A stretch of DNA of 64,000 bases from a virus: positions 7,592-71,591 of IMG/VR virus record IMGVR_UViG_3300035703_000067. One strand, written 5' to 3'. Numbering within the stretch: position 1 is the first letter of the stretch; each line of letters begins with the position of its first letter. Shown here piece by piece: positions 21,156 through 36,713 of the stretch. The translations under genes were made by a program, and so were the position numbers. The notes beneath the pieces are model-generated. The model saw only the letters and a list, made by a program, of their open reading frames with translations, did no database searches and was not told the DNA's origin.

Positions 21156-22633
21156 CGGCCTCCATCGCCCAGCTCCAACGCCGGGCCGACAAACTCCGCC
21201 AAGAACTCGCCCGCCGCAAGGCGCGCTCGGCGAACTTCGACCCCGCCATCGCCCCGACGAAGCTCCCCGGCGTCGACGACTGGCCAGCGTTCGCGCGGCG
21301 CACCTGGATCCGCACAGCCGGCACGGTCGCCCCCTTCGTGCCCTACGCCTACCAAGAGGAGCTAGTGCGCTCGATCAACACGCACCCCAACACGATCATC
21401 AACAAGTCGCGCCAGATGGGCGCCTCCGAGACGGTCTGCTCCTACTTGCTATGCCGAGCCCTCACCGAGCGCGGCTTCGCAGCGGTGGTCTTCTCCAAGA
21501 CCCAACAGGACGCCTCCGAGCTGGGGCGCCGCGTGCGCGCCATGGCCAACAGCATCGAGGGCGAGGCCATCCGCTACCTCACGGACTCCAATACGCAGAT
21601 CGCCATCGAAGGCCGGGGCACGTTGTACTTCCTCCCCGCCTCACCGCGCGCAGCGCGGGGCATCCCGTCCTGCTCCGTGCTGTTCATGGACGAAGGCGCC
21701 TTCCTCGACGGTGCCGCCGAGATCTACCGGGGCGCCATGCCAACCCTCTCGATGGTGGGCGAAGCCGCCAAGGTGATCGTCACCTCGACCCCCGACACCG
21801 AACTCGACTGGTTTGGCCAGCTCTGGCATCAAGGCACACCACCTGACTGGTACGAGTACGTCAAGCGCCGCGACATCAACGGGCTCAACACCCTGCTCGC
21901 CCGGGTGAAGGACTCGTGGAACCGCGTGGCGATCCACTACTCACAACATCCGATCTACGGCTTCGACCCCGAGTGGGCGCGGAAGACCCGCGAGTCGCGT
22001 CGGATGACCCAGGCCGCATGGGACTCCGAGTACGAGCTGGCGTTCGGAGCGACGGACACCCAGATCTACCCATCGGAACTGATTCGCCGCGCCACGCGAG
22101 GCCACTGGCGCGAGTGCGGTTCGATTGGCCGCACCTACGTGATCGGCGTCGACCCAAACGCCGGGGGCAACGACTACTTCACAGCGATCGTGTTGGACAT
22201 CACCGAGCGTCCCTACGAGGTTGTAGGGATGTACCACGAGAACGGCAAGAGCACCGATTACAGCTTGCGTCATGTGAAAGCCTTGATAGACGATTACCTA
22301 CCGGAGCGGGTAATCGTGGAAAAGCAGGCGATGGGCGCTGTGATTGCAGAAGCGCTCTCAACCGTCCTGCCAAACTATGCTATCGAAACTTTCAGCACCA
22401 GTCGCCCGAGCAAGATCGTTGCTACCGATCGCATCTTGTTCTTGATGGAGCACGATGAGCTGATCTTCCCCGAGGGCGTGATACCGAATGAGCTACGAGC
22501 TTTCCAGCAAAAGGAAAGTGGTAACCGCGAAGCCGCCTCAGGAGCGCACGATGACGCGGTGATGGCCCTGGCCTTCGCCTGCCACGCCATCCCAGAGACA
22601 CCAAACACTGCAGGGTTCTTCGCCCACATTTAA
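21152..22633 (+). CDS. terL: Terminase large subunit
   Basis: PYAYQ, KSRQMGAS Walker A, LFMDEGAF Walker B, TSTP, IGVDP, HDDAVMALA. Confidence 0.95.
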   Translation: MTASIAQLQRRADKLRQELARRKARSANFDPAIAPTKLPGVDDWPAFARRTWIRTAGTVAPFVPYAYQEELVRSINTHPNTIINKSRQMGASETVCSYLLCRALTERGFAAVVFSKTQQDASELGRRVRAMANSIEGEAIRYLTDSNTQIAIEGRGTLYFLPASPRAARGIPSCSVLFMDEGAFLDGAAEIYRGAMPTLSMVGEAAKVIVTSTPDTELDWFGQLWHQGTPPDWYEYVKRRDINGLNTLLARVKDSWNRVAIHYSQHPIYGFDPEWARKTRESRRMTQAAWDSEYELAFGATDTQIYPSELIRRATRGHWRECGSIGRTYVIGVDPNAGGNDYFTAIVLDITERPYEVVGMYHENGKSTDYSLRHVKALIDDYLPERVIVEKQAMGAVIAEALSTVLPNYAIETFSTSRPSKIVATDRILFLMEHDELIFPEGVIPNELRAFQQKESGNREAASGAHDDAVMALAFACHAIPETPNTAGFFAHI

Positions 22634-22669: not shown

Positions 22670-23005
22670 CTAAGCGCAACTTGTATCGACATTATGGATC
22701 CATTTCCAGATTTCCGCCTCACGCAATGGGTCCCAGAACTCCTGCTGGCGATACCAGTCGAACCAAACGCTATGGCCTTTCTGCGAATTGCAAAGTAGGC
22801 AGCACCCAACAAGGTTCTCCCTAACTGTCACACCACCATGAGCTTTTGGGATGACATGATCAAGGGTCGCTCCTCTCCCTAAGTCTTCATCGCAATAAGC
22901 ACAGCATCCATTCCATTTATCTAAAACAACGCGCCTAAGTCGAGTCTTTGCATCGCGCTTGGTTACTAGCTCAGAGCCATCGATCTGATGGTCCACCATG
23001 AGCAT
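22670..23005 (-). CDS. HNH endonuclease
   Basis: CAYC...TLDHVIPKAHGG...NLVGCCLLCNSQKG. Confidence 0.9.
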   Translation of the reverse strand: MLMVDHQIDGSELVTKRDAKTRLRRVVLDKWNGCCAYCDEDLGRGATLDHVIPKAHGGVTVRENLVGCCLLCNSQKGHSVWFDWYRQQEFWDPLREAEIWKWIHNVDTSCA

Positions 23006-23179: not shown

Positions 23180-24982
23180 GTGGCCTCTACTTCTACCGAA
23201 GCGTTCCGGAATGATGGGGCCTTAGTAAATATATTGTCCGGAATGGGTGTATCCACCAAGGACAAGACTGTAGCAACCATAGTAGGTGCAAAACCAATAC
23301 TAACTGAAGGCGAACTCGAAGCTCTATACGCACATGGAATACCCAGACGCTACGTCGACTCCATCTCCGACGAGATCCTGCGCCACCAGACCACGATCAC
23401 GCTGGGCGGCGACGACGAGGAAAACGCCAACGACCTGATCGCATCGTTCGAGGAATTCCTGAAGGCCACGCAATTCCACCACGCCTTCTCCGAGGTCGTG
23501 AAGCTGCAGCGCCTCTACGGCGGCGCCGGCCTGGTGCTCCTCATCGATGACGGCCTCCCGCCCGAAGAGCCCGTCGACATCAATCGCATCCGCTCGATCC
23601 AGGGCTATGTGCCCCTGTCGCGGCACGAGCTAATCCCCGAGGACTTCACGATCACCGACTACACCAAGCCCTCGCACTACCGGATCACGACAGCGCAGCG
23701 TCTGACCCCTGAGCAACAGGGGCAGTACGTCAACGTGCGGATCCATTCCTCGAGGGTGGCGCGCTTCGACGGGCTCTACCTGCCTTGGAACGTGCGCGTG
23801 CGCAACACCGGCTGGGGCCTTCCGGTACTCCAACTCGTCTGGGAGGCATACAAGCGCTACGAGAGCGCCATGTCGGGCCTGGAGTCGATGACGACTGACT
23901 CCGACCTGTTTGTCCACAAGATCCCAGGCCTGTTCAACCGCATCGCCACCGGCAACGAGAGCGACCTGCGCAAGCGACTGGAGGCCAACAACCTTTCACG
24001 CAGCGTCTATGGCGGCATGGTCGTGGACGTGGAGGAGGAGCTGCAGTTCCTCAACCGCGCCCTGAGCAACATCGCCTCCGCGACCGAGCCCTTCATCAAG
24101 GATCTCCAAGCAGCGACGGGTTGGCCCGCCTCGATCCTGATGGGCGACTCCCCCGGTGGCCTGGGCAAGGAAGGCCGCTTCGAGGAGCGCGTCTGGGCCT
24201 CGATTGTCGAGCAATGGCAAGAGGTCTATTGCCGCACGGCGGTGACCGAGGTGTTCCGGTACATCCTCGTCTCGCGCGAAGGCCCAGCCCGAGGACGGCC
24301 CCCTGAAAAGTGGAGCGTCGAATTCCCGAGCGTCTTCACGGAGACAGACAGCGAAAAAGCAGCGTTGCGACTGCAGGTAGCACAAGTTGATGCTCAGTAC
24401 ATCAATCTGGGCGTACTAAATGCATTAGAGGTACGTGAGGCAAGGTTTGGAGGAACCGAATATAGCATAGAAACAACATTAGATCCTAATGTCTCAAGCA
24501 TGCTGACTGAACAAACCAACATGCAGTTCGAGACACAAATGATAGGTATGCAAGCACAGAATGAAGCAGTTCAGAACCCACAAGAGGAGGAAGAACAACA
24601 ACCAGAAGAAGAGACTGAAGAGGAAGCTAAAACAGACTCTATCGACTATATAAATGCCCACGGCTACCGTATAGCAGTCGTAGCGCGCCTGGGCGATGTG
24701 AGCAAAGGAGTTTTAATAGCACCCGATGGACAAAGAGTAGACTCTAAACGTGCCTCAGTATTCGTAGTAGGTCCACAAAGAGCGTACGGACGTAAGTTGT
24801 ACAAGACCAGATTCGACGTACAGGGCGAACTTGTTGAAGGTCCGTATGCCATAGGCTTCCGCACGATCAAAGCAGCGAAGCAAGCAATCGCTTCTTTCTA
24901 TCCTCGGCAGAATGTGGCAGGGCTATCCCCCGTATCCGAGGGCGAGGCCGAAGCCCTTCGCGCCGGTTGGGAGCAGTACTGA
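23180..24982 (+). CDS. Portal protein (DUF1073-type) with acidic linker and C-terminal extra domain
   Basis: Position after terL; RLYGGA, RIHSSRV, GWG.PVLQ, LMGDSPGGLG, EVREAR. Confidence 0.9.
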   Translation: MASTSTEAFRNDGALVNILSGMGVSTKDKTVATIVGAKPILTEGELEALYAHGIPRRYVDSISDEILRHQTTITLGGDDEENANDLIASFEEFLKATQFHHAFSEVVKLQRLYGGAGLVLLIDDGLPPEEPVDINRIRSIQGYVPLSRHELIPEDFTITDYTKPSHYRITTAQRLTPEQQGQYVNVRIHSSRVARFDGLYLPWNVRVRNTGWGLPVLQLVWEAYKRYESAMSGLESMTTDSDLFVHKIPGLFNRIATGNESDLRKRLEANNLSRSVYGGMVVDVEEELQFLNRALSNIASATEPFIKDLQAATGWPASILMGDSPGGLGKEGRFEERVWASIVEQWQEVYCRTAVTEVFRYILVSREGPARGRPPEKWSVEFPSVFTETDSEKAALRLQVAQVDAQYINLGVLNALEVREARFGGTEYSIETTLDPNVSSMLTEQTNMQFETQMIGMQAQNEAVQNPQEEEEQQPEEETEEEAKTDSIDYINAHGYRIAVVARLGDVSKGVLIAPDGQRVDSKRASVFVVGPQRAYGRKLYKTRFDVQGELVEGPYAIGFRTIKAAKQAIASFYPRQNVAGLSPVSEGEAEALRAGWEQY

Positions 24983-27774
24983 TGAGCGAGCAACGCCCTA
25001 CGACCCCGGAAGCCGCACGAGCTGCTGCTTATCTTGCGGCGAAAGAGCGCCTTGATCTCAAAGGCAAAGTCAAATGCAATCCCCCTAATAGAGCGTGCGG
25101 GGACCGTTGCATTCCTCCCAACTGGAAGTGCCGCGTAAAGGGAGAAGGGACAGACTCCCATTCACGAGTCATCGCTGGGGACCCTTTAGCAGGGGCGGCT
25201 TCGATTGCCCGAGGCCGAAAGCGCTTGGCAAAAGGACTCAGAAAGGGAAGAGTTGAAGAAATTCAAGCAGGTCGAGCTGCTATTGCCAGGGGCATTGTAA
25301 AAGCAGTTCCAGGTAAAAACATCAAGCAAAAACAAGAGCTAAGAAAAACAGTAGAAACAGTTATTCTCCCTGTTGCTACTGGCTTATTCGCTGCTTGGGC
25401 ACTACGGCAAGGACACGAAGCAGCCAAACTTCTATTCCCGGCCTATGCACAAGGACCAGGCAAGGACATCGAGAACGCCGCAGGCACAACTGTAGGATTC
25501 GTTCTCGACAGGATCCCCATCTACGGGGAAAAAAGAAGACTGGAAAGGAAGATTGGCAATCAAAGAGCAAATATGCTCGCAAATGCCGCTACTTTCGGAG
25601 CAAATAATGCAGCCCCTTCTGTACCTAGTGCGGACAACACATATTTTAGCAAACTCTCTAGATCGGTAAGTGGAGCCAGCAAAGCAGTCAACGAAGGTCT
25701 AACCGCTGTTCATCCGGAAAAAGGAATTAAACCATACGATACTTTTAGGTCTGATCTTTTAAGTGGTGTATTGGGGGCCACAATAAAAGGAAAGGGTGCG
25801 GATGGCTCGGATCGAGTAAGCGCCTACGCAGAACCAGCCACAATAAGGTTTATGTCTAAGCAGTTTGGTCTCGACCCTGCGACTCTAAAAGGTGGAGCGT
25901 ACGGAGAACAACAAAAGAACTGGCTCATAGATGGCGTAGCACAGCAACTACAAAAGGGAAGAGAACAGCTGCGTGCTGACATGGCCGTTAGAGGACTAAG
26001 CTATAAAAAACCCGAAGACGTAGAAAAGTACGTAGACATCGCAGTGGACAATGCTAGAACAACTCTAGGTAAAGCTCAAAAAGGTAAAAGCGAAGAGGCA
26101 GTAGCCGACTACAGGAGCATGGTTCGCTCTCTCATTAAAGGAGGCGAGGCTCAGAGTACGAAGGCGTTAGCAGATGAAATGTACGTAAAAACATTCAACG
26201 GATTTGATAATTACTTCAAAACCGCAGCCGAGCGCGTCAAAGACGACACTGACGCACGTCGACAAGTCGGAGCGGCCGCCTCAAGGACTTCTCCAGTGAA
26301 AGATACTCTTATCGGTGTAGCAGAGCGTATTAAAACAAAAGTAGGCATGAATTCACCTATTGCTGGGGCTAATCATGCCGAACTGGTCATACTTAAGGTA
26401 TACCATGAGTATTCACTAACTAGCAAAAAGAAATTTGCTAGAGATATTAACGGCAATAACACATGGACAGCTTCCGACTCAACCATTAGGTACGCCGCCC
26501 AAGATCTTGGCTGGGATGGCTCTGGTGGGACCGAGGGCGCTTACAAGCACTTACGCGCTACTGGGCAATTCGCCAGGCTGGCGTGGGGGAACGTATCCAC
26601 AGCCCCTGCTAGACCGCGTAGCCAGAATAAGCAGCAACGCCTTGGAGATCTAATTCGTAGTGTAAGGAAAAGAAAAGGAAACGAGAACCTCTCGATGGAG
26701 CAGATTATTGCTATAGCAAAGCAAGAGCTCAATAGAGATGATAGCGACGATATGCCTGTCCGGGTGAAAGCATACCTCGAGATGCGATTGAGGCAAGACA
26801 AGAAGTGCGGAGCCTCCTACATCTCAGACAATAAAAAGTGCACAAAAGCAAATAAAGGACCCAACTCTAAAGACGACACCGAAGTATTTACCAAGACTCT
26901 GGTCGCAAGCACCGCTTTAGTGGGCGGAGTAGCCGTGACCGCAACCGTAGCAAGCAGTATCGATGATGTAGTTAAAGAGCGGTCTAGGCAGTTCGGAGAA
27001 CCTACTCTCTCAACGTTCACGGGAAAGATAGGGAATCCAGATATTTACAGAAAAAGTGTTATTCGTACTCTCTCATCAGGTCATTTTGGCGACACTGCCC
27101 TCAGTGAAGTAAATAACGCAATGTACGTTGTAAAAACTCCTAAGCAGTCCCCCAAGAGTGCGCGCGTTGCAGCAGGGGCCGGCTTGGACAGTAAAGCGCG
27201 GCGCAACTTGTATCGATCACAAGGGCGCATAACCAGAAGTGAAGTTGTGAATAACACAATCGCAGGTGATATTGGAGTCGCCCCTAAAGTCGTTGCAGCA
27301 AATCGCAACACCCTAGTTACAGAACACGTAAAAGGGCAACCTCTGCGGAAACTAGACGATAAATCCCTGGTAGCCCTAAATGAGTCTTTGGGTAAGCTAC
27401 ATAGAGCGGGAATTGCCCATAACGATCTGAAACCCGCTAATATCTTTATGAATGACAAAGGGAAGGCTGTCTTAATCGATTTCGGCCTCTCGTCCAATTC
27501 GCCCGGGGCTGTAGCCGGAGAGTGGTATAGAGCAATGAACAGTCGTAGCTCTAACCCACTTATAGGTATTACCAAGACTGCGACCGGTAGTCTGAATCTA
27601 AAGCGTCTAAACCCCGAAGGATACAAAAGTGCAGAAAAAGCATTATCAGCCGTAATAGGCGGAAAGGTAAGTGAATCACGTCTGACGCAGGCTGCAAAAG
27701 ACGCAAAAAAAGCTCGTCAGATACAGCTAGTCATAAATAACTACTACGCAGGTAAGTACAATCAGAACAAATGA
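24982..27774 (+). CDS. Modular head-associated polyprotein: two Cys-tag/hydrophobic modules, large unknown domain, C-terminal Ser/Thr-kinase-like domain
   Basis: RLD..KC..CGDRCIPPNWKC; RQDKKCGASYISDNKKC; kinase SGHFG, VVK, HNDLKPANI, DFG. Confidence 0.8.
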   Translation: MSEQRPTTPEAARAAAYLAAKERLDLKGKVKCNPPNRACGDRCIPPNWKCRVKGEGTDSHSRVIAGDPLAGAASIARGRKRLAKGLRKGRVEEIQAGRAAIARGIVKAVPGKNIKQKQELRKTVETVILPVATGLFAAWALRQGHEAAKLLFPAYAQGPGKDIENAAGTTVGFVLDRIPIYGEKRRLERKIGNQRANMLANAATFGANNAAPSVPSADNTYFSKLSRSVSGASKAVNEGLTAVHPEKGIKPYDTFRSDLLSGVLGATIKGKGADGSDRVSAYAEPATIRFMSKQFGLDPATLKGGAYGEQQKNWLIDGVAQQLQKGREQLRADMAVRGLSYKKPEDVEKYVDIAVDNARTTLGKAQKGKSEEAVADYRSMVRSLIKGGEAQSTKALADEMYVKTFNGFDNYFKTAAERVKDDTDARRQVGAAASRTSPVKDTLIGVAERIKTKVGMNSPIAGANHAELVILKVYHEYSLTSKKKFARDINGNNTWTASDSTIRYAAQDLGWDGSGGTEGAYKHLRATGQFARLAWGNVSTAPARPRSQNKQQRLGDLIRSVRKRKGNENLSMEQIIAIAKQELNRDDSDDMPVRVKAYLEMRLRQDKKCGASYISDNKKCTKANKGPNSKDDTEVFTKTLVASTALVGGVAVTATVASSIDDVVKERSRQFGEPTLSTFTGKIGNPDIYRKSVIRTLSSGHFGDTALSEVNNAMYVVKTPKQSPKSARVAAGAGLDSKARRNLYRSQGRITRSEVVNNTIAGDIGVAPKVVAANRNTLVTEHVKGQPLRKLDDKSLVALNESLGKLHRAGIAHNDLKPANIFMNDKGKAVLIDFGLSSNSPGAVAGEWYRAMNSRSSNPLIGITKTATGSLNLKRLNPEGYKSAEKALSAVIGGKVSESRLTQAAKDAKKARQIQLVINNYYAGKYNQNK

Positions 27775-28658
27775 CTATTCCTATCGTAGAGAGGTATAAC
27801 AAGATATTATCTACCACGGAGTCGGAAACAATAAGTGTGCTCGACCGGGTCCTCGACCAGAGCTTCAACCGCCTAGTGCGCCGAGCTCGGGTCCATATGC
27901 GGATTGGTCTTATCGACCCAGTCCAGCGCAACCTCGCTCTGCTTCAAGAATTCAGACAGCTCGTCCCTTCTTTCCGCCCAGATCGCGTCGATGCCTACGA
28001 CAAGGTGCTTCAAGGCTTAATAGGACAAGCAAGCACACGGGGCATCGAGGTTGCGGACAATCTCACCCAACGCATGGCGCCCGAGCGTCCTCGGGTGGAT
28101 GTCTCCATTCCCCTCGAGGCGACCGTGGCCGCAGCGGCACAAGCCAAGGGCTATTTGCGCAAGCATGGTGAACGCTTTGCCACCACCTCAGCCGAGGTCG
28201 TAGCCCAAGGCATCGCCGAAGGTCGCCCCACCGACAGCATGGTCCGCGACATGCGCTCCCGGCTCAGTGTGGTGAAGTCGCGCGCCGAGATGATCGTCCG
28301 CACAGAGTCGCTACGTGCCTACAACGAGGCGTCCAATACGTACTACGCCGCGCAAGGCGTGGAACTTTGTATGTGGTACGCCACCGCTGATGATCGCGCG
28401 TGCTCCATCTGCGCCCCTCGCGCCGGGCAGATCTACAAGCGCTCCGAGATCAAGGCACCATGCCACCCCCGGTGCCGGTGCTACCTCGCTCCCTGGGATC
28501 CCGAGATCGCAGCGATGGACCCCGAGTACGCCGGCCAACGTCAACGACACGCTGACGAAATACGCAAAGCGTATAAACAGCTCTCCAAAGAGCCTGCCAA
28601 CTTGAATCGCGCAGCAGTCTTTGAGCAACTGGCGCCCACACCGGTTGCAACGCCGTAA
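27771..28658 (+). CDS. MuF / SPP1 gp7-like minor head protein (short form, no toxin extension)
   Basis: RAEMIVRTESLRAYN, W.ATADDRACSIC, PCHPRCRC. Confidence 0.9.
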   Translation: MTIPIVERYNKILSTTESETISVLDRVLDQSFNRLVRRARVHMRIGLIDPVQRNLALLQEFRQLVPSFRPDRVDAYDKVLQGLIGQASTRGIEVADNLTQRMAPERPRVDVSIPLEATVAAAAQAKGYLRKHGERFATTSAEVVAQGIAEGRPTDSMVRDMRSRLSVVKSRAEMIVRTESLRAYNEASNTYYAAQGVELCMWYATADDRACSICAPRAGQIYKRSEIKAPCHPRCRCYLAPWDPEIAAMDPEYAGQRQRHADEIRKAYKQLSKEPANLNRAAVFEQLAPTPVATP

Positions 28659-28720
28659 CCGACTTCTGATCCATCCATAGACTGTCCATATCCGTAACCG
28701 GGCGGACGCGCCCTTAAGTC

Positions 28721-29596
28721 ATGCCTGCGATGAAGAAGCGCCCGCCCATGGAAATGGAGCCCGAGATGGAGGAGCAGCGCGAATCCGAGGGCGTCCGCGA
28801 AGGTGAGGACGACATGCCAATGGGCAAGACCAACCGCAAGCGCAGCGCAAAGAACGCCAAACGCACCAAAGCCCCCATGGACGGTGGCATGTACGGCAAA
28901 AAGCCGATGGACGGCGAAGGCTGCGGATGCGGAGGCCGCAAGGGCAAAGGCAAGTGCGACGGCAACTGCGGCAAGAAGATGGATCGGAACGATGCCCTCA
29001 CGCCTCAGGAGTACCTCGACGCATGTGAGCTCGGTATCCAAGGCCGCTCCCGCTCCTACATCCGAGCACGGCTGGACGCGGAGGAGCGCATCGACAAGAA
29101 GTGCGGAGCCAGTGGTATTCCCGACAACAAGAAGTGCCGCATTGGCAGTGGTGGAAGCAGTGATCTCGCTGGAAAGGCAAAACAGGCTGCTAATGCGTAC
29201 AACCGTAAGGCTGGTAAAGGTATTAGTGTAGGTAAAGCACTGCTAGGTGCTGCAGTAATTGGGGGAGGCGTTCTCGCCGCACGCGAAGCTGGCCGAGCTA
29301 TAGAAGAAGGCAACGCCAAGAAGGAGCAACTCAATCGAGTCAATAAACTTCGTCAAAAAGGACCTGCAGGCAAAGAAGCCGCACAGCGCCTCGTTAATAA
29401 GTATAAAGAATCTAGACCCAACTCTGCAGCACGTGATCGCAGAGCTGCACGTAACAGAAAGCTTCTAATGCCAGGAGTCGATCCTGCGCCTGCGAAAAAG
29501 ACACAACGACGGGTGCGCAGGCAAGGGAAAGTCGTAGTGCTTAACTCGATGTATGCAGACGGATTTGCATTTGATCCCGCACTGCTCGGTATTTGA
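28721..29596 (+). CDS. Cys-tag module protein with low-complexity Cys/Gly/Lys N-terminus
   Basis: RIDKKCGASGIPDNKKC + ALLGAAVIGGGVLAA; C-terminal NSMYADGF. Confidence 0.8.
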   Translation: MPAMKKRPPMEMEPEMEEQRESEGVREGEDDMPMGKTNRKRSAKNAKRTKAPMDGGMYGKKPMDGEGCGCGGRKGKGKCDGNCGKKMDRNDALTPQEYLDACELGIQGRSRSYIRARLDAEERIDKKCGASGIPDNKKCRIGSGGSSDLAGKAKQAANAYNRKAGKGISVGKALLGAAVIGGGVLAAREAGRAIEEGNAKKEQLNRVNKLRQKGPAGKEAAQRLVNKYKESRPNSAARDRRAARNRKLLMPGVDPAPAKKTQRRVRRQGKVVVLNSMYADGFAFDPALLGI

Positions 29597-29598
29597 TC

Positions 29599-30183
29599 AT
29601 GGCACTAACTCCTAAGTCAGTCAGACTTGACAAAAAATGTGGAGCAAGCGGAATTCCTGACAACAAAAAATGTCGGATTAACTCCGGGCAGAATCAAAGT
29701 GATCTAATAGCACGAGCTCAAGAAGCGTACCAAAACTATGACAAAACCAAAAGTAGAGGTGTTGACATAGGCAGAACAATAGGCACAAGCGTAGCTGCAC
29801 TTGGCACCGCTTACTCAGCCTATTCTCTGTATCATTCCATAAAGACCGAAAAAGAAAGGAAAAACCAGACTGCTTTGCAGGGGATCAAGTTTAAGAAGAA
29901 AATGGGCAATGAAATTCTGGTAAAAGCTGCGACAAGAGCACGCGATTTTGTCAATGGCAATCGTGGGGTCAACCCATGGGCCACCCGTTACGGCCGGAGC
30001 TCGGCCGAGAAGCAAGCAGTCGAAATGGTGAACCGAGCCAAGGAATCGCGGCGGATGTGGCGAGAAGCCGCCCGCCGTGAACTCAGCGCATTGAAGTCTG
30101 TTGTACCCGAATCACCAGCGCGTAAACGTGCCCGAGAGCGCAATAACAACGATTCCATATGGGCTGATGGCTTCGAGGTTTAA
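29599..30183 (+). CDS. Cys-tag module protein
   Basis: RLDKKCGASGIPDNKKC + hydrophobic helix; C-terminal DSIWADGF. Confidence 0.8.
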   Translation: MALTPKSVRLDKKCGASGIPDNKKCRINSGQNQSDLIARAQEAYQNYDKTKSRGVDIGRTIGTSVAALGTAYSAYSLYHSIKTEKERKNQTALQGIKFKKKMGNEILVKAATRARDFVNGNRGVNPWATRYGRSSAEKQAVEMVNRAKESRRMWREAARRELSALKSVVPESPARKRARERNNNDSIWADGFEV

Positions 30184-30185
30184 CC

Positions 30186-31961
30186 ATGACAAGTCTGACA
30201 CCATCGTCTCTGCGCATTGATAAGAAATGCGGCAAGTCCGGCATTGCGGATAATAAGAAGTGCACCAAACAGACAACACCACAAACTCCGGGCAACGAAG
30301 AGAAGAGCGGGGGTGGAGGCCCCAGCACCGCACTTCTTCTATCGGCCGGAGGTGTTGTTGCTACCGGGGTCGTTCTTGGAGTTATAGCTAAAGATATTTA
30401 CGGAAGCGGTGTACCAAAAGAAAAAGTACCTCCCAAGGTCCCGCCTCCAGGTCTTTATGACACATTCAAACCTGGAGATCTGATTTATCAGACCGATGAA
30501 TTCGCCGGTGCAAATAGGGCACACTACGCCGTCTACGTAGGCAAAGTAGACGGTGAGCATAGGGTGTTTGACACCTCTGCGCAGACGATTAAAGGTAAGC
30601 AGACGTCCAAGATGCAACTGCGCACCATTAAGGAAGCTACGGGGACCGGCACCTCTTTCGCTCTCGCATCCCGCGTAGACGAAAAAAGGCGTCGTCCGAC
30701 ATCTCAAGAACTCGAGAAGATCATTAAGCGTCTCAATGGCAAGTCATTCGACTGGACGGGCTTTGAGGACAACTGTGAAACACTAGCCCGCAGCATTGTG
30801 AACGATCTACCAGTATCGACTCAATCCAAGAACGTATCCGGCATGACCAACTTCTTGGCGAAAACAATGATTTCGGCTATGGCCCCAAAAGGTTACAGAA
30901 AACGTGCAGTAAAGCAAAAGAACATCAATAACTTGGTCGCTCGCACCTTGGGGGACAGCATGTCCATTACGCCTTCTTCTCTCAAGATCCGCGCCGACAA
31001 GAAGTGCGGGAACAGCGGAATCCCCGAGAACGCCAAATGCCACAAAGGTGGTGGAGGATCGTTCAACGCCGGACTCCTTGCCACTGGCCTTGTCGCGGGA
31101 GGTATCACCGCTTACGCCCTGACTCGAGGCGGGGGAAAAGCTACATCTGCATCAACAGAGTCTCCCACTAAGCCGCGCCCCAGCCTTCCGGGTGTAACCC
31201 CCAAAGCATTGCTGGCGCCAGCGCCTCCACGTAAATCAAAGACGCAACGTATGCGTGAGAACACGCAGACCGCCATGCGCGAAGCCGAGGGCGCCATTGC
31301 ACAAACCGCGCGCGAAGAAGTGCGACGTGTGGGGCAGATCGGCAACACCATGGCCAAAGCCGGTGAAGCTACCGGCATGGCAGCCAAGACCACATTCCGT
31401 GAGCTTCGCCTGCGCACCGAAGCCGCGCGGCGTCGCTACGAACCCGGTTACAGGCGCCCTGATCAACGCAGGCTCCCAGGCGGGGTCGGATCAGGTCTCC
31501 CACGTCAAGAACGAACTCGCTCCCTCGAGGAACTTGGGCAGATGAGCACAGAAGAGCTCCGTACGTGGATGACCGATCCCCGCACAGGGCAACCTCGCCG
31601 TCGTAAACCTCAAGGCTTCGGGCGCCGCGACAACTACATCCAGTACTACGCCCCTACGCAACTCCAACCCCCCACCCGCCGCGACGCCGAGGACGGCAAG
31701 AAATACACCAAAACCGTCACCAACCCTGAAACCGGGCGCAAAAACAAGGTCCGCTACGGCGCTAAGGGCTACAAGATCGCCCCCGGCACTAACAAGGGCG
31801 ACCGCTACTGCGCCCGGAGCTTCGGCGACATGAAGTCCGAGGGCTACGACTGCTCCGGTGCCGAGCGCAACACACCCTTGTGCCTCTCGAGGGCGAAGTG
31901 GAAGTGCTCAGGCAAGACCTCACGCCGCGATGGGCTCACGCCGGGAAAGTCCTCGGCCTAG
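30186..31961 (+). CDS. Two-module Cys-tag polyprotein with LRAT-like (permuted papain) domain and C-terminal Cys-rich basic domain
   Basis: RIDKKCGKSGIADNKKC; PGDLI..HYAVYVG..NCETLA; RADKKCGNSGIPENAKC; YCARS...SRAKWKC. Confidence 0.8.
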   Translation: MTSLTPSSLRIDKKCGKSGIADNKKCTKQTTPQTPGNEEKSGGGGPSTALLLSAGGVVATGVVLGVIAKDIYGSGVPKEKVPPKVPPPGLYDTFKPGDLIYQTDEFAGANRAHYAVYVGKVDGEHRVFDTSAQTIKGKQTSKMQLRTIKEATGTGTSFALASRVDEKRRRPTSQELEKIIKRLNGKSFDWTGFEDNCETLARSIVNDLPVSTQSKNVSGMTNFLAKTMISAMAPKGYRKRAVKQKNINNLVARTLGDSMSITPSSLKIRADKKCGNSGIPENAKCHKGGGGSFNAGLLATGLVAGGITAYALTRGGGKATSASTESPTKPRPSLPGVTPKALLAPAPPRKSKTQRMRENTQTAMREAEGAIAQTAREEVRRVGQIGNTMAKAGEATGMAAKTTFRELRLRTEAARRRYEPGYRRPDQRRLPGGVGSGLPRQERTRSLEELGQMSTEELRTWMTDPRTGQPRRRKPQGFGRRDNYIQYYAPTQLQPPTRRDAEDGKKYTKTVTNPETGRKNKVRYGAKGYKIAPGTNKGDRYCARSFGDMKSEGYDCSGAERNTPLCLSRAKWKCSGKTSRRDGLTPGKSSA

Positions 31962-34228
31962 TAAGGAGCGACGCCCCCGAGCGCGCTAAGGGCAAGCCCT
32001 GTGGACAGTCACATATACCAAAACAGCATAATTGCTCGAAAGATTCTAGTAAAGGTGTCAATCAAGTAGAGAGTAATCAGCGCAATCTCGCTAAGTGGGC
32101 CGCCGTCGGCATAAGTGCTGCGGCAGTTGGTGGAATCGCCGCTGTTTTGTATAGCCAAAACAGTTCAAAACAACAGATATTACGTGAGTTAAAGCTAAAA
32201 CAGACTAATGCGCGCGCCGCTCTTTTGTATAGTCAAAACAGTTCAAAACAACAGATATTACGTGAGTTAAAGCTAAAACAGACTAATGCGCGGCTTCGTC
32301 GTGCTGAAGAGCACGCCGCTATATACGATTATGTTTCTGCAAGTTATGGGCTGAACCGCGCACTTAGAAGTGGAGAACAGCTGGACGAACGCTATCAAGT
32401 CATAAAAGACGGACTAGACAGTTGGCTTAATAAGTCGTCTGGGGATAAAGGAATTTACTACAGAGGAATTGCATGGAATGCAAGTACCGAGTGGAGGACT
32501 GCTACAGCAGGTCAAACAATAACTGACAAAGCATTCGGCAGCTTTTCTAGTAGTAGAGCAATGGGTATAAAGTATGGTGAAGGCAAAGATAATAAATCGG
32601 GAGTAGTCATTGTCGCTCGCGGATCTCTTGCCAAGCTGCCGTACCACGTTAAAGGAAGATACGGTCAGTCAATGGGAGAGAAGCTTCGTGCCGAAAGAGA
32701 ATTCCTAGCAAGGCGCAACACGCAATTCAAAGTATTGCGCACTCAAGACGTTACTTTGCGCTACAGCAGGAAAAAAGGAGTAGACGAGCTTGTTCGTGAT
32801 CCTAACGGTGACATTATCAAAAAACAACGAATCGTTTATGTAGATATACTCGATCCTCGGCGCTCCGACGCATACTTTGCGCGCGCTCAGGGCAAGCCCT
32901 GCGGTGAATCTCACATCCCAAAGCAGCATAAGTGCAGCAAGAATTCGAGGATCTCTAATAGCAACAATTTACAAACCGCAGCTAAAGTAGCTCTTGCCGC
33001 AGGCGTCATAGCAGGAGGTGCCTACTTGATCAAAAGCAGATACATCTCACCTAAAGACTGGGAGAAACACCCAGCCAATAGGCTGAACAACCCCAAGATG
33101 ACCGAGGACGAGGCGCAGCGCATCGCCGACGAGGCCATCGCCGGGGGCCAGAAGTGGGACGTCCAGGAAAAGATCAATGCTCGCCGCCGAGCCGAGCGCG
33201 CCACCGAGTGCGGAGGTGGCCTGGGAAAGATCCAAGCCCCGGCGAAGTTTGACGCACAGATCGTCGATCCTCAGTGTCAAGCAGGCTTCGGGGCATTTGG
33301 TACTTACTATGTACACTCATCTGAAAAGTATGGAATAAAGGTTTTTCAGAGTGGAGCAGACGACGACGTTAAAGCTGAATTTAGACGCCTGGATAAAGCG
33401 GACTATGCAGGAGTAAATGTTCCAGCTCCCATTCGCATAAACAAAGTCAAAGACCAATACGGAGATGTAAAAGCTCAGACTCTAGTCATGTCTCATATGA
33501 AAGAGTACAAGACTATTAGCGCTGTACACCATGACGCATACGCCAGAGCAGCGAATGCCCCGCTAATTGTCCAAACAAAGATAGCTCGTGAATTCCGCAA
33601 GCTACATACAGCAGGTCTTGCACATGGGGATATCCACTCAGGCAACGTAATGGTACATCCGCGAAGCCAACGAGTGGCGTTAGTCGATTTTGGCTACGCG
33701 ACTGAATTACACGATGGAAGGCAGCCCTCGCACTACCGCAATGGTGTGCAGAACCTCCTCTACGACATGAATCGACTACCCGAGTTCCTCGGATTCGACA
33801 ACAGAGGCGCTGATTTCTTAAACCGGTACAAAGGTACGCTAGAAAACGTAGAGAAACAAGCCAAAGAGCTTGCCAAGTTCGGCGGCCCCGATAACGAACA
33901 ACGGTTTACCATCGCTGTGAAGCGCTACCACGACGCCCTCGAGCGTGAACTGCTCTGGGACGACCGTATGCCACGTTCTCGTTTTGTTAGCGGCGCCGAA
34001 CAGCCACGCATCCCTGGCCTGACACGCCGCATCCTTACTGCCAACGCCAACACACGGCAGCGCCAGTTGATGGAAGGGCTGCACAACGGCAATCTGACGT
34101 TGTTCCAGGACGGAGCCAAGAACCTGGGCGTTAAGCCCGCGCGTCTGTTCGTAGCCCTCAAACCCGAGCGTGATGCTCGCCAAGCCCGTCAACGCCAACG
34201 GCCCTTCGGCACTCCCTTGGTCCCATGA
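31880..34228 (+). CDS. Cys-tag modules with ADP-ribosyltransferase and Ser/Thr-kinase-like domains (probably a frameshift extension of the upstream ORF)
   Basis: GKPCG.SHIPKQH.C twice; ART LNRALR..YYRG..FGSFS..EREFL; kinase GFGAFG, IK, HGDIHSGNV, DFG; no good start codon. Confidence 0.8.
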   Translation: MPLEGEVEVLRQDLTPRWAHAGKVLGLVRSDAPERAKGKPCGQSHIPKQHNCSKDSSKGVNQVESNQRNLAKWAAVGISAAAVGGIAAVLYSQNSSKQQILRELKLKQTNARAALLYSQNSSKQQILRELKLKQTNARLRRAEEHAAIYDYVSASYGLNRALRSGEQLDERYQVIKDGLDSWLNKSSGDKGIYYRGIAWNASTEWRTATAGQTITDKAFGSFSSSRAMGIKYGEGKDNKSGVVIVARGSLAKLPYHVKGRYGQSMGEKLRAEREFLARRNTQFKVLRTQDVTLRYSRKKGVDELVRDPNGDIIKKQRIVYVDILDPRRSDAYFARAQGKPCGESHIPKQHKCSKNSRISNSNNLQTAAKVALAAGVIAGGAYLIKSRYISPKDWEKHPANRLNNPKMTEDEAQRIADEAIAGGQKWDVQEKINARRRAERATECGGGLGKIQAPAKFDAQIVDPQCQAGFGAFGTYYVHSSEKYGIKVFQSGADDDVKAEFRRLDKADYAGVNVPAPIRINKVKDQYGDVKAQTLVMSHMKEYKTISAVHHDAYARAANAPLIVQTKIAREFRKLHTAGLAHGDIHSGNVMVHPRSQRVALVDFGYATELHDGRQPSHYRNGVQNLLYDMNRLPEFLGFDNRGADFLNRYKGTLENVEKQAKELAKFGGPDNEQRFTIAVKRYHDALERELLWDDRMPRSRFVSGAEQPRIPGLTRRILTANANTRQRQLMEGLHNGNLTLFQDGAKNLGVKPARLFVALKPERDARQARQRQRPFGTPLVP
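31943..31949 (+). promoter_or_regulatory. Predicted -1 programmed ribosomal frameshift site G GGA AAG
   Basis: Lambda G/GT heptamer, correctly phased, 3 codons before TAG; the -1 frame stays open to 34228. Confidence 0.7.
32138..32293 (+). repeat. 78-bp in-frame tandem duplication
   Basis: Two near-identical copies encoding AA(V/L)LYSQNSSKQQILRELKLKQTNAR. Confidence 0.95.
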
Positions 34229-34530
34229 CCTCCCTTCGCCTCGACGGTCGCTCCACCGAGTACTACCGCACGCATCCCGAGGCCGCTGCAAAGAAAGTTC
34301 GCCACCAGGCCGAGATCAACCGGCGCCCCTCTGAGCGCAAGCGCCGCGCCGAGCTCAACCAAGAGCGCCGTCGTCGTGGCATCTACGGCAAAGGTGGCCC
34401 AGACATCTCCCATACCGAGGCCGGAAAAACCGTCCTCGAAGATCCCTCCATCAACCGCGCGCGCAACGGTCACGGCAAACAACCCCGCCTCAAGCGCGAC
34501 TCGATCTGGGCCGAGGGCTTTGCCCCCTAA
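34225..34530 (+). CDS. Small basic protein, HNH-like remnant, with DSIWAEGF tail
   Basis: RKRRAELNQERR..GKGGPDISH...PSINRARN; MTSLRLD start, KRDSIWAEGFAP end. Confidence 0.7.
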   Translation: MTSLRLDGRSTEYYRTHPEAAAKKVRHQAEINRRPSERKRRAELNQERRRRGIYGKGGPDISHTEAGKTVLEDPSINRARNGHGKQPRLKRDSIWAEGFAP

Positions 34531-34742
34531 AGCCCCTCTAAAAGCTTCGACGCTGAAACGCCATACAAATCTGCCAAGTCAAATAATTTCGATACTGCAA
34601 ACTCGATCTCTCCTTTCTCCAACCGACAATAAGCGGCCTGACTAATAGCAAGCTTCTCTGCTACGTGCGACTGAGTAAACTTCGTCGCTTCCCTTAACTG
34701 TCTAATACGCCCACACAATGTGAGTTGCCGATAGATCGCCAC
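34527..34742 (-). CDS. XRE-family HTH transcriptional regulator
   Basis: IRQLRE...TQSHVAEKLAISQAAYCRLEKG...LADLYGVS. Confidence 0.9.
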   Translation of the reverse strand: MAIYRQLTLCGRIRQLREATKFTQSHVAEKLAISQAAYCRLEKGEIEFAVSKLFDLADLYGVSASKLLEGL

Positions 34743-34803: not shown

Positions 34804-36069
34804 ATGGAAACATCTGTTTCTCGCTACGATTTCGCGCCCATTACGGGCAGCGAAACCACCGACGAGGGGTATCTCCGCGTCTGGTGTCGTGCGGCGCGCT
34901 CGGGCACTCAGCTCTACAAGCGCGCAGATGGCTCCCAGGTTCGGGAATACAGGCCTCCCGAGGAGGTCTCAAACCCTGAGTCTCTCTCCACGTTCGGCAT
35001 GAAACCCGCAACGTGGGGGCACCCCCCTGTTCTTCTCGATTCAGCCAACACCAAGAAGTTCCAGGTCGGCTACTCCGGTAGCCAGGTCCGGTACAACGAC
35101 GGTTTCGTTGAAGTGGCCCTGGTTGTTACAGACCAAGACGCCATCGAGAAGATCAAGCGCAAGGACGCAACGGAAGTCTCTGCCGGATACAAGGTCGATT
35201 TCGACCCCACGCCCGGTGTCACCCCCGAGGGCGAGTCCTACGACGGCGTTCAGCGCAACATCCGGGTGAACCACATCGCCATCGTGCCCCGTGGCCGGGC
35301 TGGCCCGGAGGTACGCCTACTTATGGATCGAATGGATGCGGCCGACGCCGTCGCCTTCGATTCGGCGCTCCAGCCCTGTACACCTGCATCTCCCGTTATG
35401 GCCACCGTCAAACTCGACGGCCTGGAGATCGATCTGCCCGCAGAAGCAGCTAGCGCGGTCCAGTCCTTCGCACGGGACATGGAGCGCCAGCTCAAAGCTG
35501 TGACTACCGAGCGCGATGAGCTTTCCAACAAGCTCGACGCTCAGCAGGAAGAGATCGACAACCTCGCCTACGAAAAAGAAGCCGCCGAAGGCCGCGCTGA
35601 CGCACTCGAAGAGCGCATCAACGAGCTCGAAGACGGCACTTCTACCGGTCGCATCGACACCGCTGAACTCGACGCCCTCGTTTCTGAGCGCCTCGCCACT
35701 CTCCAACGTCTGGCCCCCGCCTTCGATGAGGAGTTCAAGTTCGACGGCATCGACAGCGACGACCTCTACGCCCAGGCCTTCGAGAACCTGACCGGTTCGG
35801 CCCCCCGCGAAGACGCTGACCCCTCCTACATCCACGGTGTGGTGGACGGCATTCTTGCCGCTCGCGCTGACTCCGAGGACGAAGAGGGTGACGAGGACGA
35901 CTCCGAGGAAGAAGGCGAAGAGCCCGAAACCAAAGAGGACCGTGCCGACAGCACCACTTCCCTGCGTGACGCACTGAAAGGTGCCGGTCGCGGTTCCGCT
36001 TCTCCGGTGGACACCTACCGGACGCGCCAAGCGGAAGCCTGGAAGCGCCCCCTCACCGCCACCAAGTAA
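34804..36069 (+). CDS. DUF2213-family putative prohead protease/scaffold
   Basis: EGYL..ARSGTQLY, RPPEEV, HP, EVSAGY, QRNIRVNHIAIVPRGRAG; acidic coiled-coil C-half. Confidence 0.9.
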   Translation: METSVSRYDFAPITGSETTDEGYLRVWCRAARSGTQLYKRADGSQVREYRPPEEVSNPESLSTFGMKPATWGHPPVLLDSANTKKFQVGYSGSQVRYNDGFVEVALVVTDQDAIEKIKRKDATEVSAGYKVDFDPTPGVTPEGESYDGVQRNIRVNHIAIVPRGRAGPEVRLLMDRMDAADAVAFDSALQPCTPASPVMATVKLDGLEIDLPAEAASAVQSFARDMERQLKAVTTERDELSNKLDAQQEEIDNLAYEKEAAEGRADALEERINELEDGTSTGRIDTAELDALVSERLATLQRLAPAFDEEFKFDGIDSDDLYAQAFENLTGSAPREDADPSYIHGVVDGILAARADSEDEEGDEDDSEEEGEEPETKEDRADSTTSLRDALKGAGRGSASPVDTYRTRQAEAWKRPLTATK

Positions 36070-36081
36070 GGAGATCCTTCC

Positions 36082-36696
36082 ATGGCAGTCACTTTTACCG
36101 CCACCACCGTCGCCAATCCGAGCGGCGCACAGGGTTCGTACCCCCTGGTCCAAGTCAAGGGCCACGAGGGCATGATCGCCGACCTGCAGGCCTATGTGTC
36201 TCGCAGCTATCGCAACCAAACCGGCGCCGCCATTCCTTTTGGCGTGCTGGTTGCAACCGATAACACCCCCACCAGCAACGACGCTTTCGCTGTCGAGATC
36301 GCCACTGGTGTGACCGGCATCCAAGGCCTGGCCATCAGCACGATGACCCTGGAGGGTGTGTCCGGCTCCTCGAGCTACACCCCTGTACCAACCCCCGCCT
36401 ACTCGGATGGCCGCATCGGCTACCCCGACAAGGAGACCCTCAATGTGGTGTCCAAGGGTGTGGTCTGGGTGTATTCCACCGCCGCCATCGCCCTCGGCGA
36501 CGCCGTTCGCTTCTTCAAAGCGGACCACTCGGGCACCGTCACTGGCGCCAACCTCGGTCGTTTCACCAAGACCGCTGTTGCCAACAAGACCGTCGAAATC
36601 ACCGCCGGTGCTCGTTGGCTGTCTGAAACCTCGGCCGCCGGCCTCGTCTTGCTGGAGATTGACCTCCCCAGCATGACGTTCTCCGCCGACGCTTGA
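36082..36696 (+). CDS. Capsid decoration/cement protein (putative)
   Basis: Between protease and MCP; IPFG, V.SKGVVWV. Confidence 0.75.
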   Translation: MAVTFTATTVANPSGAQGSYPLVQVKGHEGMIADLQAYVSRSYRNQTGAAIPFGVLVATDNTPTSNDAFAVEIATGVTGIQGLAISTMTLEGVSGSSSYTPVPTPAYSDGRIGYPDKETLNVVSKGVVWVYSTAAIALGDAVRFFKADHSGTVTGANLGRFTKTAVANKTVEITAGARWLSETSAAGLVLLEIDLPSMTFSADA

Positions 36697-36713
36697 TCAC
36701 GGAGCTTCTTCCC

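Follow-up and report, generated by a model that had tools for sequence, protein, structure and literature searches.

We describe here a short, cysteine-containing peptide tag that recurs eight times in five adjacent open reading frames (ORFs) of a phage genome, and that in related phages stands at the junctions of modular proteins, ahead of many unrelated domains. The DNA under study, referred to in the following as the window, comprises 64,000 nucleotides (nt) of the virus record IMGVR_UViG_3300035703_000067 (bases 7592-71591 of 71,591; completeness rating of the record, 100%). The five ORFs, A to E, lie on the + strand and are bounded by the gene for the portal and the gene for a DUF2213 protease/scaffold protein. 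The tag motif defines a real and unannotated family, and its tags are found within blocks of virion genes only, in one of two places depending on the phage group. An earlier reading of the window, made from its sequence only, had proposed a capsid-associated effector array built from this tag, a hydrophobic helix and variable enzymes. Its interpretation is partly supported: the proposed modularity, confinement and novelty hold, but a dependence on the head protein MuF does not.

A cysteine tag repeated at the protein level

Scanning all six frames of the 64 kb window with the regular expression CG.[STGRAC].I.{5}C gave nine matches, compared with a mean of 0.155 and a maximum of 2 in 200 mononucleotide shuffles. 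Eight of these lie on the + strand within ORFs A to E, with first cysteine codons starting at 25096, 26806, 29102, 29638, 30228, 31005, 32000 and 32900, each inside an interval in which the sequence-only reading had placed a copy. The ninth, at 44780, has stop codons close by in its frame and is a non-coding chance match. The motif core is C-G-x-[S/R]-x-I-x5-C; seven copies are canonical, for instance DKKCGASYISDNKKC (26776-26865) in ORF A, and the first, KCNPPNRACGDRCIPPNWKCR (25066-25155), also in ORF A, is a variant with four cysteines.

Across 85 unique aligned 30-residue tags from the window and related loci, the residues C, G, I and C are invariant, with a spacing of C-x10-C, and a logo of 313 instances shows conservation confined to positions -7 to +14 around the first invariant cysteine. 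The consensus extends over about 20 residues, [C]-x-[R/P]-x-[G/D/N]-K-[K/P]-C-G-x-[S/R]-[C/H/G]-I-P-x-x-x-x-C-[R/S/T]-[K/L], within which three co-varying subtypes can be told apart: type 1 with the core D-K-K-C-G-x-S-G-I-P-x-N-x-K-C, type 2 with G-K-P-C-G-x-S-[H/Y]-I-P-K-x-H-x-C, and type 0 with K-C-x-P-P-N-x-x-C-G-x-R-C-I-P-x-x-W-x-C-R-x-K-G-E-G, which has two extra cysteines.

The likeness among the copies resides in the peptide. The tags of ORFs B and C have 20 of 23 residues in common, 14 of them through different codons, and only 45 of 69 nucleotides are identical (65%); among the window tags, a repeat finder gives DNA identities of 61-77% and no long exact match. These codon differences and the low DNA identity rule out that the repeats stem from recent gene conversion or from a recombination site in the DNA. 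Selection acts on the tag peptide and not on the DNA, and the repeated architecture is a conserved protein-level unit, as had been supposed.

A hydrophobic helix frequently follows the tag, although less regularly than the sequence-only reading, which saw one behind each copy, would have it. With a Kyte-Doolittle peak of at least 1.3 in a 17-residue window as the criterion, six of the seven canonical window tags are followed by a clear Gly/Ala-rich helix (peaks 1.58-2.2), the segment in ORF C being weaker; family-wide, by a strict criterion, a helix stands behind 172 of 349 tags, as against 60 of 353 random positions. Uncharged hydrophobic segments of about 17-20 residues, predicted to be of the transmembrane type, are present in the window, and the Gly/Ala-rich helices resemble glycine zippers.

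A second motif, [K/R][K/R]-D-S-[I/V/M]-[W/Y]-A-[D/E]-G-F, is found at the C-termini of ORF C and of the downstream, untagged ORF F; the C-terminus of ORF B has the variant N-S-M-Y-A-D-G-F, without the preceding K/R. This motif lies within 12 residues of the stop codon in 31 of 38 unique instances, 34 of the 38 are in tagged ORFs, and where it is internal, the next tag comes about 10-20 residues further on. Given this position, a module is often bracketed by an N-terminal tag and a C-terminal peptide.

The tag family in protein and genome databases

A 30-column profile built from the 85 tags was searched against 1.84 billion (1.84e9) cluster-representative proteins and matched 463 representatives at E<=1e-3 and 134 at E<=1e-10, all of which come without genomic context. 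The best 150 of the 463 all contain the regular expression, 149 of them in two to four copies, and range from 100 to 1838 amino acids (aa). The ten matched clusters that we looked up are all metagenomic, and their 16 listed members are unnamed or called 'hypothetical protein'.

The suspicion that the tag is not a described family is borne out by the libraries: Pfam, NCBIfam, PHROGs and the PDB hold no model of it, and PHROGs has no family matching the N-terminal part of A, B, D or the tagged proteins of the cultured phage CL131 described below. Profile searches of the PDB with the tag and with the N-terminal domain of A gave only weak matches to LptE, colicin and LDL-receptor chains (E 0.03-0.7), which we read as no relative; for the tag, LDL-receptor chains scored E 0.04-0.65 and an LRP1 repeat 0.51. 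Among 50,697 GenBank phage records, there was no near-identical or protein-level match of the region or of ORF C, and a 30-aa type-1 tag query was likewise unmatched. A search for homologues of ORF C returned two close homologues of similar length and one weak match among longer proteins, such a word-indexed search being ill-suited to a 20-residue motif. In 185,579 species genomes, a strict type-1 DNA pattern gave only three matches, all in one Thermosynechococcus metagenome-assembled genome (MAG); roughly three chance matches would be expected for this pattern, yet all three carry the full motif. Likewise, no description of such a tag was found in the literature on polyvalent and MuF proteins, DUF2213, capsid targeting, injected effectors and cyanophage ejection proteins. 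The tag and its use at module junctions are undescribed in the libraries and literature searched; phage-carried multi-enzyme effectors with an address label are already known.

Confinement to virion gene blocks

The strict type-1 DNA pattern retrieved 36 viral-contig loci and a type-0 pattern at least 120, and this motif-based retrieval favours lineages with canonical tags. All 39 type-1 matches have the second cysteine, and most have the helix. Among the matches listed, 141 of 149 motif-fetched loci carry head genes related to those of the window, the other eight being short or part of the Thermosynechococcus set. Where a locus holds both portal and DUF2213 genes, as 31 do among the matches listed, the tags lie between them without exception (139 of 139, three to seven per locus) and on the same strand. 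Because the fetched loci are centred on tags, the profile was also run over the full length of five related records (63-76 kb, 90% or more complete); all of its 24 matches there fall into one same-strand cluster of about 3-8 kb per record. In 118 of 119 loci among the matches listed, no more than 300 nt separate the portal gene from the start of the type-0 tag, the median being 105 nt.

In the lineage of the window, the tag is confined to the portal-to-DUF2213 interval. The sequence-only reading had predicted that a hidden Markov model (HMM) of the tag would be found in portal-MuF-DUF2213 loci with variable downstream domains, and for this lineage the result is as predicted, since the tags are confined to the interval and precede many unrelated domains. 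Two parts of the prediction fail. MuF is unmatched by tblastn in three of the 31 loci, and in one of these, L026, a locus with five tags, a Pfam scan of the interval detects none either; this rules out MuF as an obligatory receptor. Beyond the lineage, moreover, the confinement to such loci gives way, as tags in two distant phages lie between head-completion and tape-measure genes.

These distant phages were found in two ways. The only prokaryote-genome matches are on two phage-like contigs (L158, L159) of the Thermosynechococcus MAG, one of which has terminase, DUF2213 and capsid genes and, about 3 kb downstream of the last of these, encodes a tagged 654-aa DnaJ protein. The cultured Aphanizomenon siphophage vB_AphaS-CL131 was reached through a weak tblastn match; both the regular expression and the tag HMM find tags in its gp044, gp045 and gp047, and five in the 1811-aa gp048. 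A hydrophobic helix follows many of them, and gp048 has three lipase/hydrolase domains. The four CL131 genes stand between head-completion genes and the tape-measure gene, directly before the latter, so that in CL131, as in the Thermosynechococcus-MAG contig, tagged genes come after head-completion genes and not beside portal or MuF. From CL131 virions, 23 proteins have been identified by liquid chromatography with tandem mass spectrometry, as reported for this phage (PMC6293099).

The hosts of tag-bearing phages are probably cyanobacteria, with every host hint in agreement. The closest cultured phage by capsid protein is the Synechococcus siphophage S-CBS4 (55% identity), which has no tags and was rejected as a tagged relative. 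PaV-LD was not counted either: it has a single weak tag-like site, C-G-K-S-C-I-x5-C, in ORF085R (HMM E 0.53). This ORF (L162 10124-11203), which encodes a 'minor head protein', lies two genes upstream of that for the tape measure and matches phrog_16619 at positions 634-991, and the window MuF matches the same PHROG at 193-273; judged from these alignments, ORF085R may connect tags with large MuF fusion proteins. As further observations, two elements are repeated in the tagged proteins of the Thermosynechococcus MAG contigs L158 and L159: a lead-in helix, A-D-A-L-L-A-R-L-D, ahead of the tag, and the sequence P-N-C-V-P, which is seen in other loci, too, before a tag or the C-terminal motif and may be a further junction element.

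Modules and cargo

To describe the modular build, we mapped the window modules onto nine relatives. The same modules are either stand-alone, with the tag at residue 14-17, or fused in varying orders, and there is a tag at each junction. For instance, two modules of ORF D, D-mid and D-C-terminal, are joined to a tag and a kinase in locus L128, L114 has F followed by a tag and a kinase, and L080 has an A with three tags. The window itself contains two such fusions, one of an LRAT-like domain, a tag, D-mid and D-C-terminal, the other of an ADP-ribosyltransferase (ART), a tag and a kinase. Internal junctions keep relics of start regions, such as M-S-I-T-P-S-S-L-K before the second tag of D, compared with the N-terminal M-T-S-L-T-P-S-S-L-R.

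A conserved backbone emerges from this comparison, consisting of the portal, the N-terminal domain of A with its type-0 tag, MuF, the N-terminal domain of B with its tag, the tagged D-mid/D-C-terminal module, often a tagged kinase, often F, and DUF2213. Variable cargo sits behind tags. The idea of plug-and-play modules therefore needs qualification: cargo does vary behind tags, but three tagged units are conserved backbone parts and not swappable cargo. The C-terminal 96 aa of D (31671-31958), for example, are 89-94% identical in relatives whose portals are only 59-81% identical.

Among the loci in the matches listed, the first tag is at most 60 residues from the start in 158 of 229 complete tagged ORFs, and 79 of the 229 carry two to four tags. 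As the sequence-only reading had anticipated, the domains downstream belong to many unrelated families: the 324 segments that come after a tag form at least 34 sequence clusters, a minimum, since kinases were pooled with other modules by the single-linkage clustering. In 49 family members, Pfam finds LRAT (12), kinase families (about 5), NLPC_P60 and DnaJ (3 each), several lipase, cutinase, hydrolase and Tle3-like domains, and ATLF, ADPrib_exo_Tox and Peptidase_M90 (1 each).

The enzymes that had been named for the window itself are recovered for the most part. The two kinases and the ART exceed Pfam cut-offs, whereas the LRAT-like domain of D remains below (16.2 bits against a cut-off of 24.3), although it aligns over profile positions 3-115 of 120. 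The kinase of A scores 34.4 bits for Pkinase against a cut-off of 31.7 (residues 804-845), with ABC1 and RIO1 also above their cut-offs and Bud32-like NCBIfam matches below theirs; the kinase of E reaches 42.6 bits for Kdo against 21.3, and the ART of E, when the domain is scanned alone, 25.1 bits for ADPrib_exo_Tox against 23.4. The downstream domains are indeed AT-richer, with a GC content of 0.44-0.53 for most cargo stretches, compared with 0.60-0.64 in MuF and the head genes. F and the C-terminal domain of D, both of them cargo domains, are stand-alone untagged small proteins in other cyanophages.

Possible roles of the tagged proteins

The explanation that we favour, and to which we would grant slightly less than an even chance, is that the tagged modular, basic proteins are built into the virion and delivered with the DNA, the tag and helix being their shared addressing or assembly unit. 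The strongly basic proteins of the five ORFs would join the virion together with head components, or with tail-lumen components in distant relatives. Protein A, with its self-contained four-cysteine tag and its gene directly after that of the portal, would form an internal core with B and the D-mid/D-C-terminal module, and accessory enzymes (kinases, ART, LRAT/NlpC, lipases, DnaJ, metallopeptidases) would join this core through the same tag and helix. The helices may bundle together in the cytoplasm and in the capsid; after ejection, the bundle would insert in the host membrane and thus anchor the enzymes at the entry site. The isoelectric points (pI) are 9.9-10.3 for the tagged proteins and 10.9 for F, compared with 4.4-5.3 for portal, protease/scaffold and capsid protein, and this basic charge would be consistent with DNA- or scaffold-associated internal proteins. 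There are precedents for such delivery: packaging and injection are described for T4 Alt, the P1 Dar proteins and the N4 RNA polymerase, and kinases and ARTs are among the domains of polyvalent phage proteins (PMC5512222). A bolder form of the proposal is conceivable but doubtful, namely that of a portable, cyanophage-specific cargo-addressing system, in which tag and glycine-zipper helix, sometimes with the C-terminal DSxWADGF, suffice to load any enzyme by co-assembly on a portal-proximal core protein and to deliver it membrane-anchored at DNA entry, as a plug-and-play arsenal for early takeover or anti-defence. Kinases, ARTs, lipases, LRAT/NlpC hydrolases, DnaJ domains and metallopeptidases would be exchanged behind the tag, and the scarcity of polyvalent effectors reported for viruses of cyanobacteria would be made good.

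Several points weigh against virion delivery. A place in the virion is suggested for the tagged proteins by gene context, hence indirectly. The strict test gives a helix after only about half of the tags, and hydrophobic helices would be just as fitting in ordinary membrane proteins synthesised by the infected cell. A receptor for the tag did not emerge, and MuF is unmatched in three of 31 loci (confirmed by Pfam for L026 only). Furthermore, the portal-to-protease interval is also a hot spot of accessory genes: that of S-CBS4 holds glycosyltransferases, a methyltransferase, an HNH nuclease and a repressor, and no tags, and that of L026 has a dCTP deaminase-like gene on the other strand. Lastly, the co-location arises partly by construction, because most loci were fetched by motif and span only about 5-14 kb; its unbiased part consists of the five whole-record scans and the window.

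The same proteins might be virion-internal but of an ejection or penetration type, in which tag and helix act only after ejection, by membrane insertion, by oligomerisation of a channel or anchor, or by a disulfide formed on reaching the oxidising periplasm. The packaging signal would then lie elsewhere, for example in the C-terminal DS[I/V][W/Y]A[D/E]GF, like an encapsulin cargo-loading peptide. We regard this as unlikely, even though glycine-zipper-like, Gly/Ala-rich helices and the many lipid- or wall-active cargo domains (LRAT, 12, NLPC_P60, 3, and lipase/cutinase/Tle3-type among the 49 members) would suit it, as would the build of CL131 gp048, with three hydrolase domains and five tags, and the position of the CL131 tagged genes beside the tape-measure gene. 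The C-terminal motif is close to the stop in most of its instances (at most 12 residues in 31 of 38) and is present on untagged F, but by regular expression it is much rarer than the tag in the same loci (38 unique instances compared with several hundred), and A, D and E of the window are without it. Kinase, ART and DnaJ cargo, moreover, require cytoplasmic ATP, NAD or Hsp70, and half of the tags have no strict helix. Improbable, too, in our judgement, is that the proteins are not packaged at all but are membrane-anchored enzymes of host takeover or envelope remodelling, made in the infected cell. Their Cys loop would be a juxtamembrane metal, redox or lipid-binding motif, and their location would follow from an accessory-tolerant interval and local duplication. 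The clearly non-structural genes of S-CBS4 and L026 in the same interval agree with this, and so do a cargo that is AT-richer than the backbone, as acquired genes would be, the order of tag, helix and enzyme, which is a common layout of single-pass membrane proteins, and the F-like and D-C-terminal-like domains that are ordinary small phage proteins elsewhere. Yet the tag occurs nowhere else in six near-complete genomes (the window and five relatives), despite other variable regions, and in distant phages the tagged genes are relocated, again within the virion block. Three tagged units are conserved backbone genes, the first of them tightly coupled to the portal gene; the C-terminal domain of D is better conserved than the portals; and the tagged genes, without exception, run in the same direction as the head genes and adjoin them.

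Two further explanations concern the junctions. The tag could be a cut site, at which the DUF2213 prohead protease or another protease splits polyproteins, much as T4 gp21 removes capsid-targeting peptides. This would be compatible with virion delivery, and the tag at each fused junction of the nine relatives, the existence of the same modules as separate genes, the start-region relics at the internal junctions of D, the internal C-terminal motifs with the next tag within about 10-20 residues and the protease gene as conserved neighbour all point in its direction. Most tags, however, are N-terminal (158 of the 229 ORFs, in the loci among the matches listed), where no separation is needed, and an invariant C-x10-C loop with conserved G, I and P exceeds a typical linear cleavage site; we therefore think it quite improbable. 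As for the repeats being DNA-level recombination sites that shuffle cassettes and encode a functionless peptide, the breakpoints of module shuffling between relatives do fall at tags. The tag DNA, though, is only 61-77% identical without a long exact match, 14 of the 20 residues common to two tags use different codons, and C, G, I and C are invariant in the 85 aligned tags, so that we reject such a site on codon evidence and leave it hardly any probability.

Should the favoured reading of virion delivery be true, and the tag suffice as a packaging or delivery label, it would be a second, sequence-unrelated case of the T4 capsid-targeting principle, in long-tailed phages of ecologically dominant cyanobacteria. 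The delivery of kinases, ADP-ribosyltransferases and enzymes active on lipids or the wall at the very start of infection would thereby be explained. Hundreds of 'hypothetical' metagenomic proteins (463 cluster representatives) could be annotated at once, and phage particles could be loaded with foreign proteins by means of a short tag. With CL131, a cultured phage that bears the tag and whose virion proteome has been published, the question is open to a direct test.

Comparison with known systems

The nearest parallel are the polyvalent proteins. According to their description (Iyer et al. 2017, PMC5512222), these have several unrelated enzymatic domains per polypeptide and are encoded near head genes in portal/terminase phages, with packaging and an action soon after injection as the predicted mode of use; a zincin-like metallopeptidase is their commonest hub or processing domain, present in about 36% of them, and they are scarce in cyanobacteria. 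The tagged proteins are similar in joining unrelated domains (kinase, ART, peptidase-like) in one polypeptide, in the proximity of their genes to head genes and in their minimal kinases, which resemble the truncated kinases of that account. At least two unrelated effector-type domains are found together in E (ADPrib_exo_Tox and a Kdo/RIO kinase), D pairs its LRAT-like domain with the conserved C-terminal domain, and family members reach 1838 aa and up to four tags. They differ in the Cys-loop tag, usually with a helix, on every module, a feature for which the accessible text of PMC5512222 has no mention of 'cysteine', 'transmembrane', 'linker' or 'ribbon', and in the hints at cyanobacterial hosts, as against the paucity reported there. 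The window also has neither a zincin metallopeptidase hub nor a MuF fusion: Pfam detects no peptidase domain in A to F and, in the 49 family members, one ATLF and one Peptidase_M90.

MuF polymorphic toxins combine an N-terminal MuF domain with a C-terminal toxin domain, and the MuF head proteins of the SPP1 gp7 type are a related comparison. Portal-MuF neighbourhood and variable toxin-like enzymes are common to these toxins and the present array. Here, however, MuF is a bare protein of 295 aa, the enzymes are on separate tagged proteins without a MuF domain, there are no immunity genes, and L026 has tags but no MuF in the interval. The capsid targeting sequence of T4 is a short N-terminal peptide on unrelated packaged proteins, removed by the prohead protease after assembly. 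As with this sequence, with Alt and with the P1 Dar proteins, we find a short label on unrelated basic proteins, one of whose cargoes is an ART, and packaging would be a further common trait. The tag differs from the T4 peptide in its greater length, in its two invariant cysteines, in the hydrophobic helix that often comes behind it and in its additional presence inside proteins, where modules are fused; we know of no reason to expect a sequence relation between the two. Podovirus ejection proteins (P22 gp7/16/20, T7 gp14-16) are head-internal, have membrane-active segments and leave with the DNA, and some are enzymatic. The tagged proteins have comparable segments, which may be membrane-active, some enzymatic domains and a putative head-internal location, but the phage is probably a siphovirus.

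A weak resemblance to the LDL-receptor class A repeat was considered and dismissed. The four-cysteine core C-x7-C-G-x-R-C-I-P-x-x-W-x-C of the type-0 tag matches the first four cysteines and the CIPxxWxC signature of this repeat, which in full has six cysteines and an acidic D-x-S-D-E calcium cage after the CIPxxWxC core. These defining features are absent: the tag has neither cysteines 5 and 6 nor the calcium cage, R/K-x-K-G-E-G follows its last cysteine, and the commoner tag variants have two cysteines. Likewise, Pfam Ldl_recept_a did not match A (E<=0.01) or the 49 family members (E<=0.001).

Gene layout from terminase to capsid

The genes for the large terminase (21152-22633) and an HNH endonuclease (22670-23005, minus strand) precede that of the portal (23180-24982, + strand, 600 aa; Phage_portal_3, E 1.8e-54), the upstream limit of the array. 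Its stop is overlapped by the start of ORF A (24967-27774, +, 935 aa), which encodes in order the type-0 tag, a conserved domain of about 550 aa, the type-1 tag, a helix (26899-26949) and a Bud32/RIO-like kinase (27034-27771, +). The N-terminal part of A is 24-53% identical to 49 other aligned sequences, and all six cysteines of the protein fall within its two tags. The stand-alone MuF head protein comes next (27771-28658, +, 295 aa; Phage_Mu_F, E 3.2e-14; phrog_115). It has no tag and, as had been noticed, no toxin tail; Pfam finds Phage_Mu_F at residues 142-239 and no further domain.

ORF B (28721-29596, +, 291 aa) consists of an N-terminal part of 117 aa, a tag (29072-29161), a helix (29228-29278) and a basic tail with NSMYADGF at 29543-29566. 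Its N-terminal part is 47-80% identical among relatives and contains, upstream of the tag, a separate cysteine cluster, G-C-G-C-G-G-R-K-G-K-G-K-C-D-G-N-C, at residues 68-83 (28922-28969). ORF C (29593-30183, +, 196 aa) is a minimal module, with a tag (29608-29697), a weak hydrophobic segment (about 29776-29829), a basic region and DSIWADGF (30151-30174). ORF D (30186-31961, +, 591 aa) starts with a tag (30198-30287), a helix (30336-30386) and the LRAT-like domain (30465-30800) and continues with a second tag (30975-31064), a second helix (31071-31121), an Arg-rich region and the conserved, Cys-containing C-terminal domain (31671-31958). No Pfam, PHROG or NCBIfam model matches this last domain. 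Stand-alone hypothetical proteins of S-TIM5-type cyanophages share 69% identity with it, and phages of Vibrio and Roseobacter have it as well.

ORF E, listed at 31880-34228 (+, 782 aa), has its true start somewhere in 31880-31960. A type-2 tag (31970-32059), a helix (32099-32149) and the ART (32279-32773) are followed by another type-2 tag (32870-32959), a helix (32981-33031) and the Kdo/RIO-like kinase (33368-33757). Within it, a tandem duplication of 78 nt in perfect register (32137-32292, copies 97% identical) repeats 26 residues just after the first helix. ORF F (34225-34530, +, 101 aa, pI 10.9; phrog_6437, E 2.2e-25) ends in DSIWAEGF (34498-34521). It has no Cys tag, and its N-terminus, M-T-S-L-R-L-D-G-R-S, resembles the tag lead-in but without cysteines; its homologues are untagged hypothetical proteins of the Synechococcus phages S-CRES1, P60 and S-CBP4 and of 67 Flavobacterium phage records. 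Since the ORFs abut or overlap, no ORFs intervene between the modules, which agrees with the earlier remark that none resembling immunity genes separate them.

A 71-aa regulator (HTH_3/HTH_31; 34527-34742, minus strand) lies between F and the DUF2213 gene. Minus-strand regulators stand likewise just upstream of the protease genes in S-CBS4 (gp021) and CL131 (gp037), which looks like conserved synteny. The DUF2213 head-maturation protease (34804-36069, +; PF09979, E 2e-41; phrog_530, E 1.3e-85), with an acidic coiled-coil scaffold tail (pI 4.4), marks the downstream limit of the array and is followed by the cement protein (36082-36696, +; Phage_cement, E 4.2e-18) and the major capsid protein (36693-37631, +; phrog_264, E 3.3e-81). 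Further downstream, an ORF of 2037 aa (43053-49166), which has no Pfam match at E<=0.001, occupies the position of the tape-measure gene; because related phages encode the tape measure where this very long ORF is found, the phage is probably a siphovirus.

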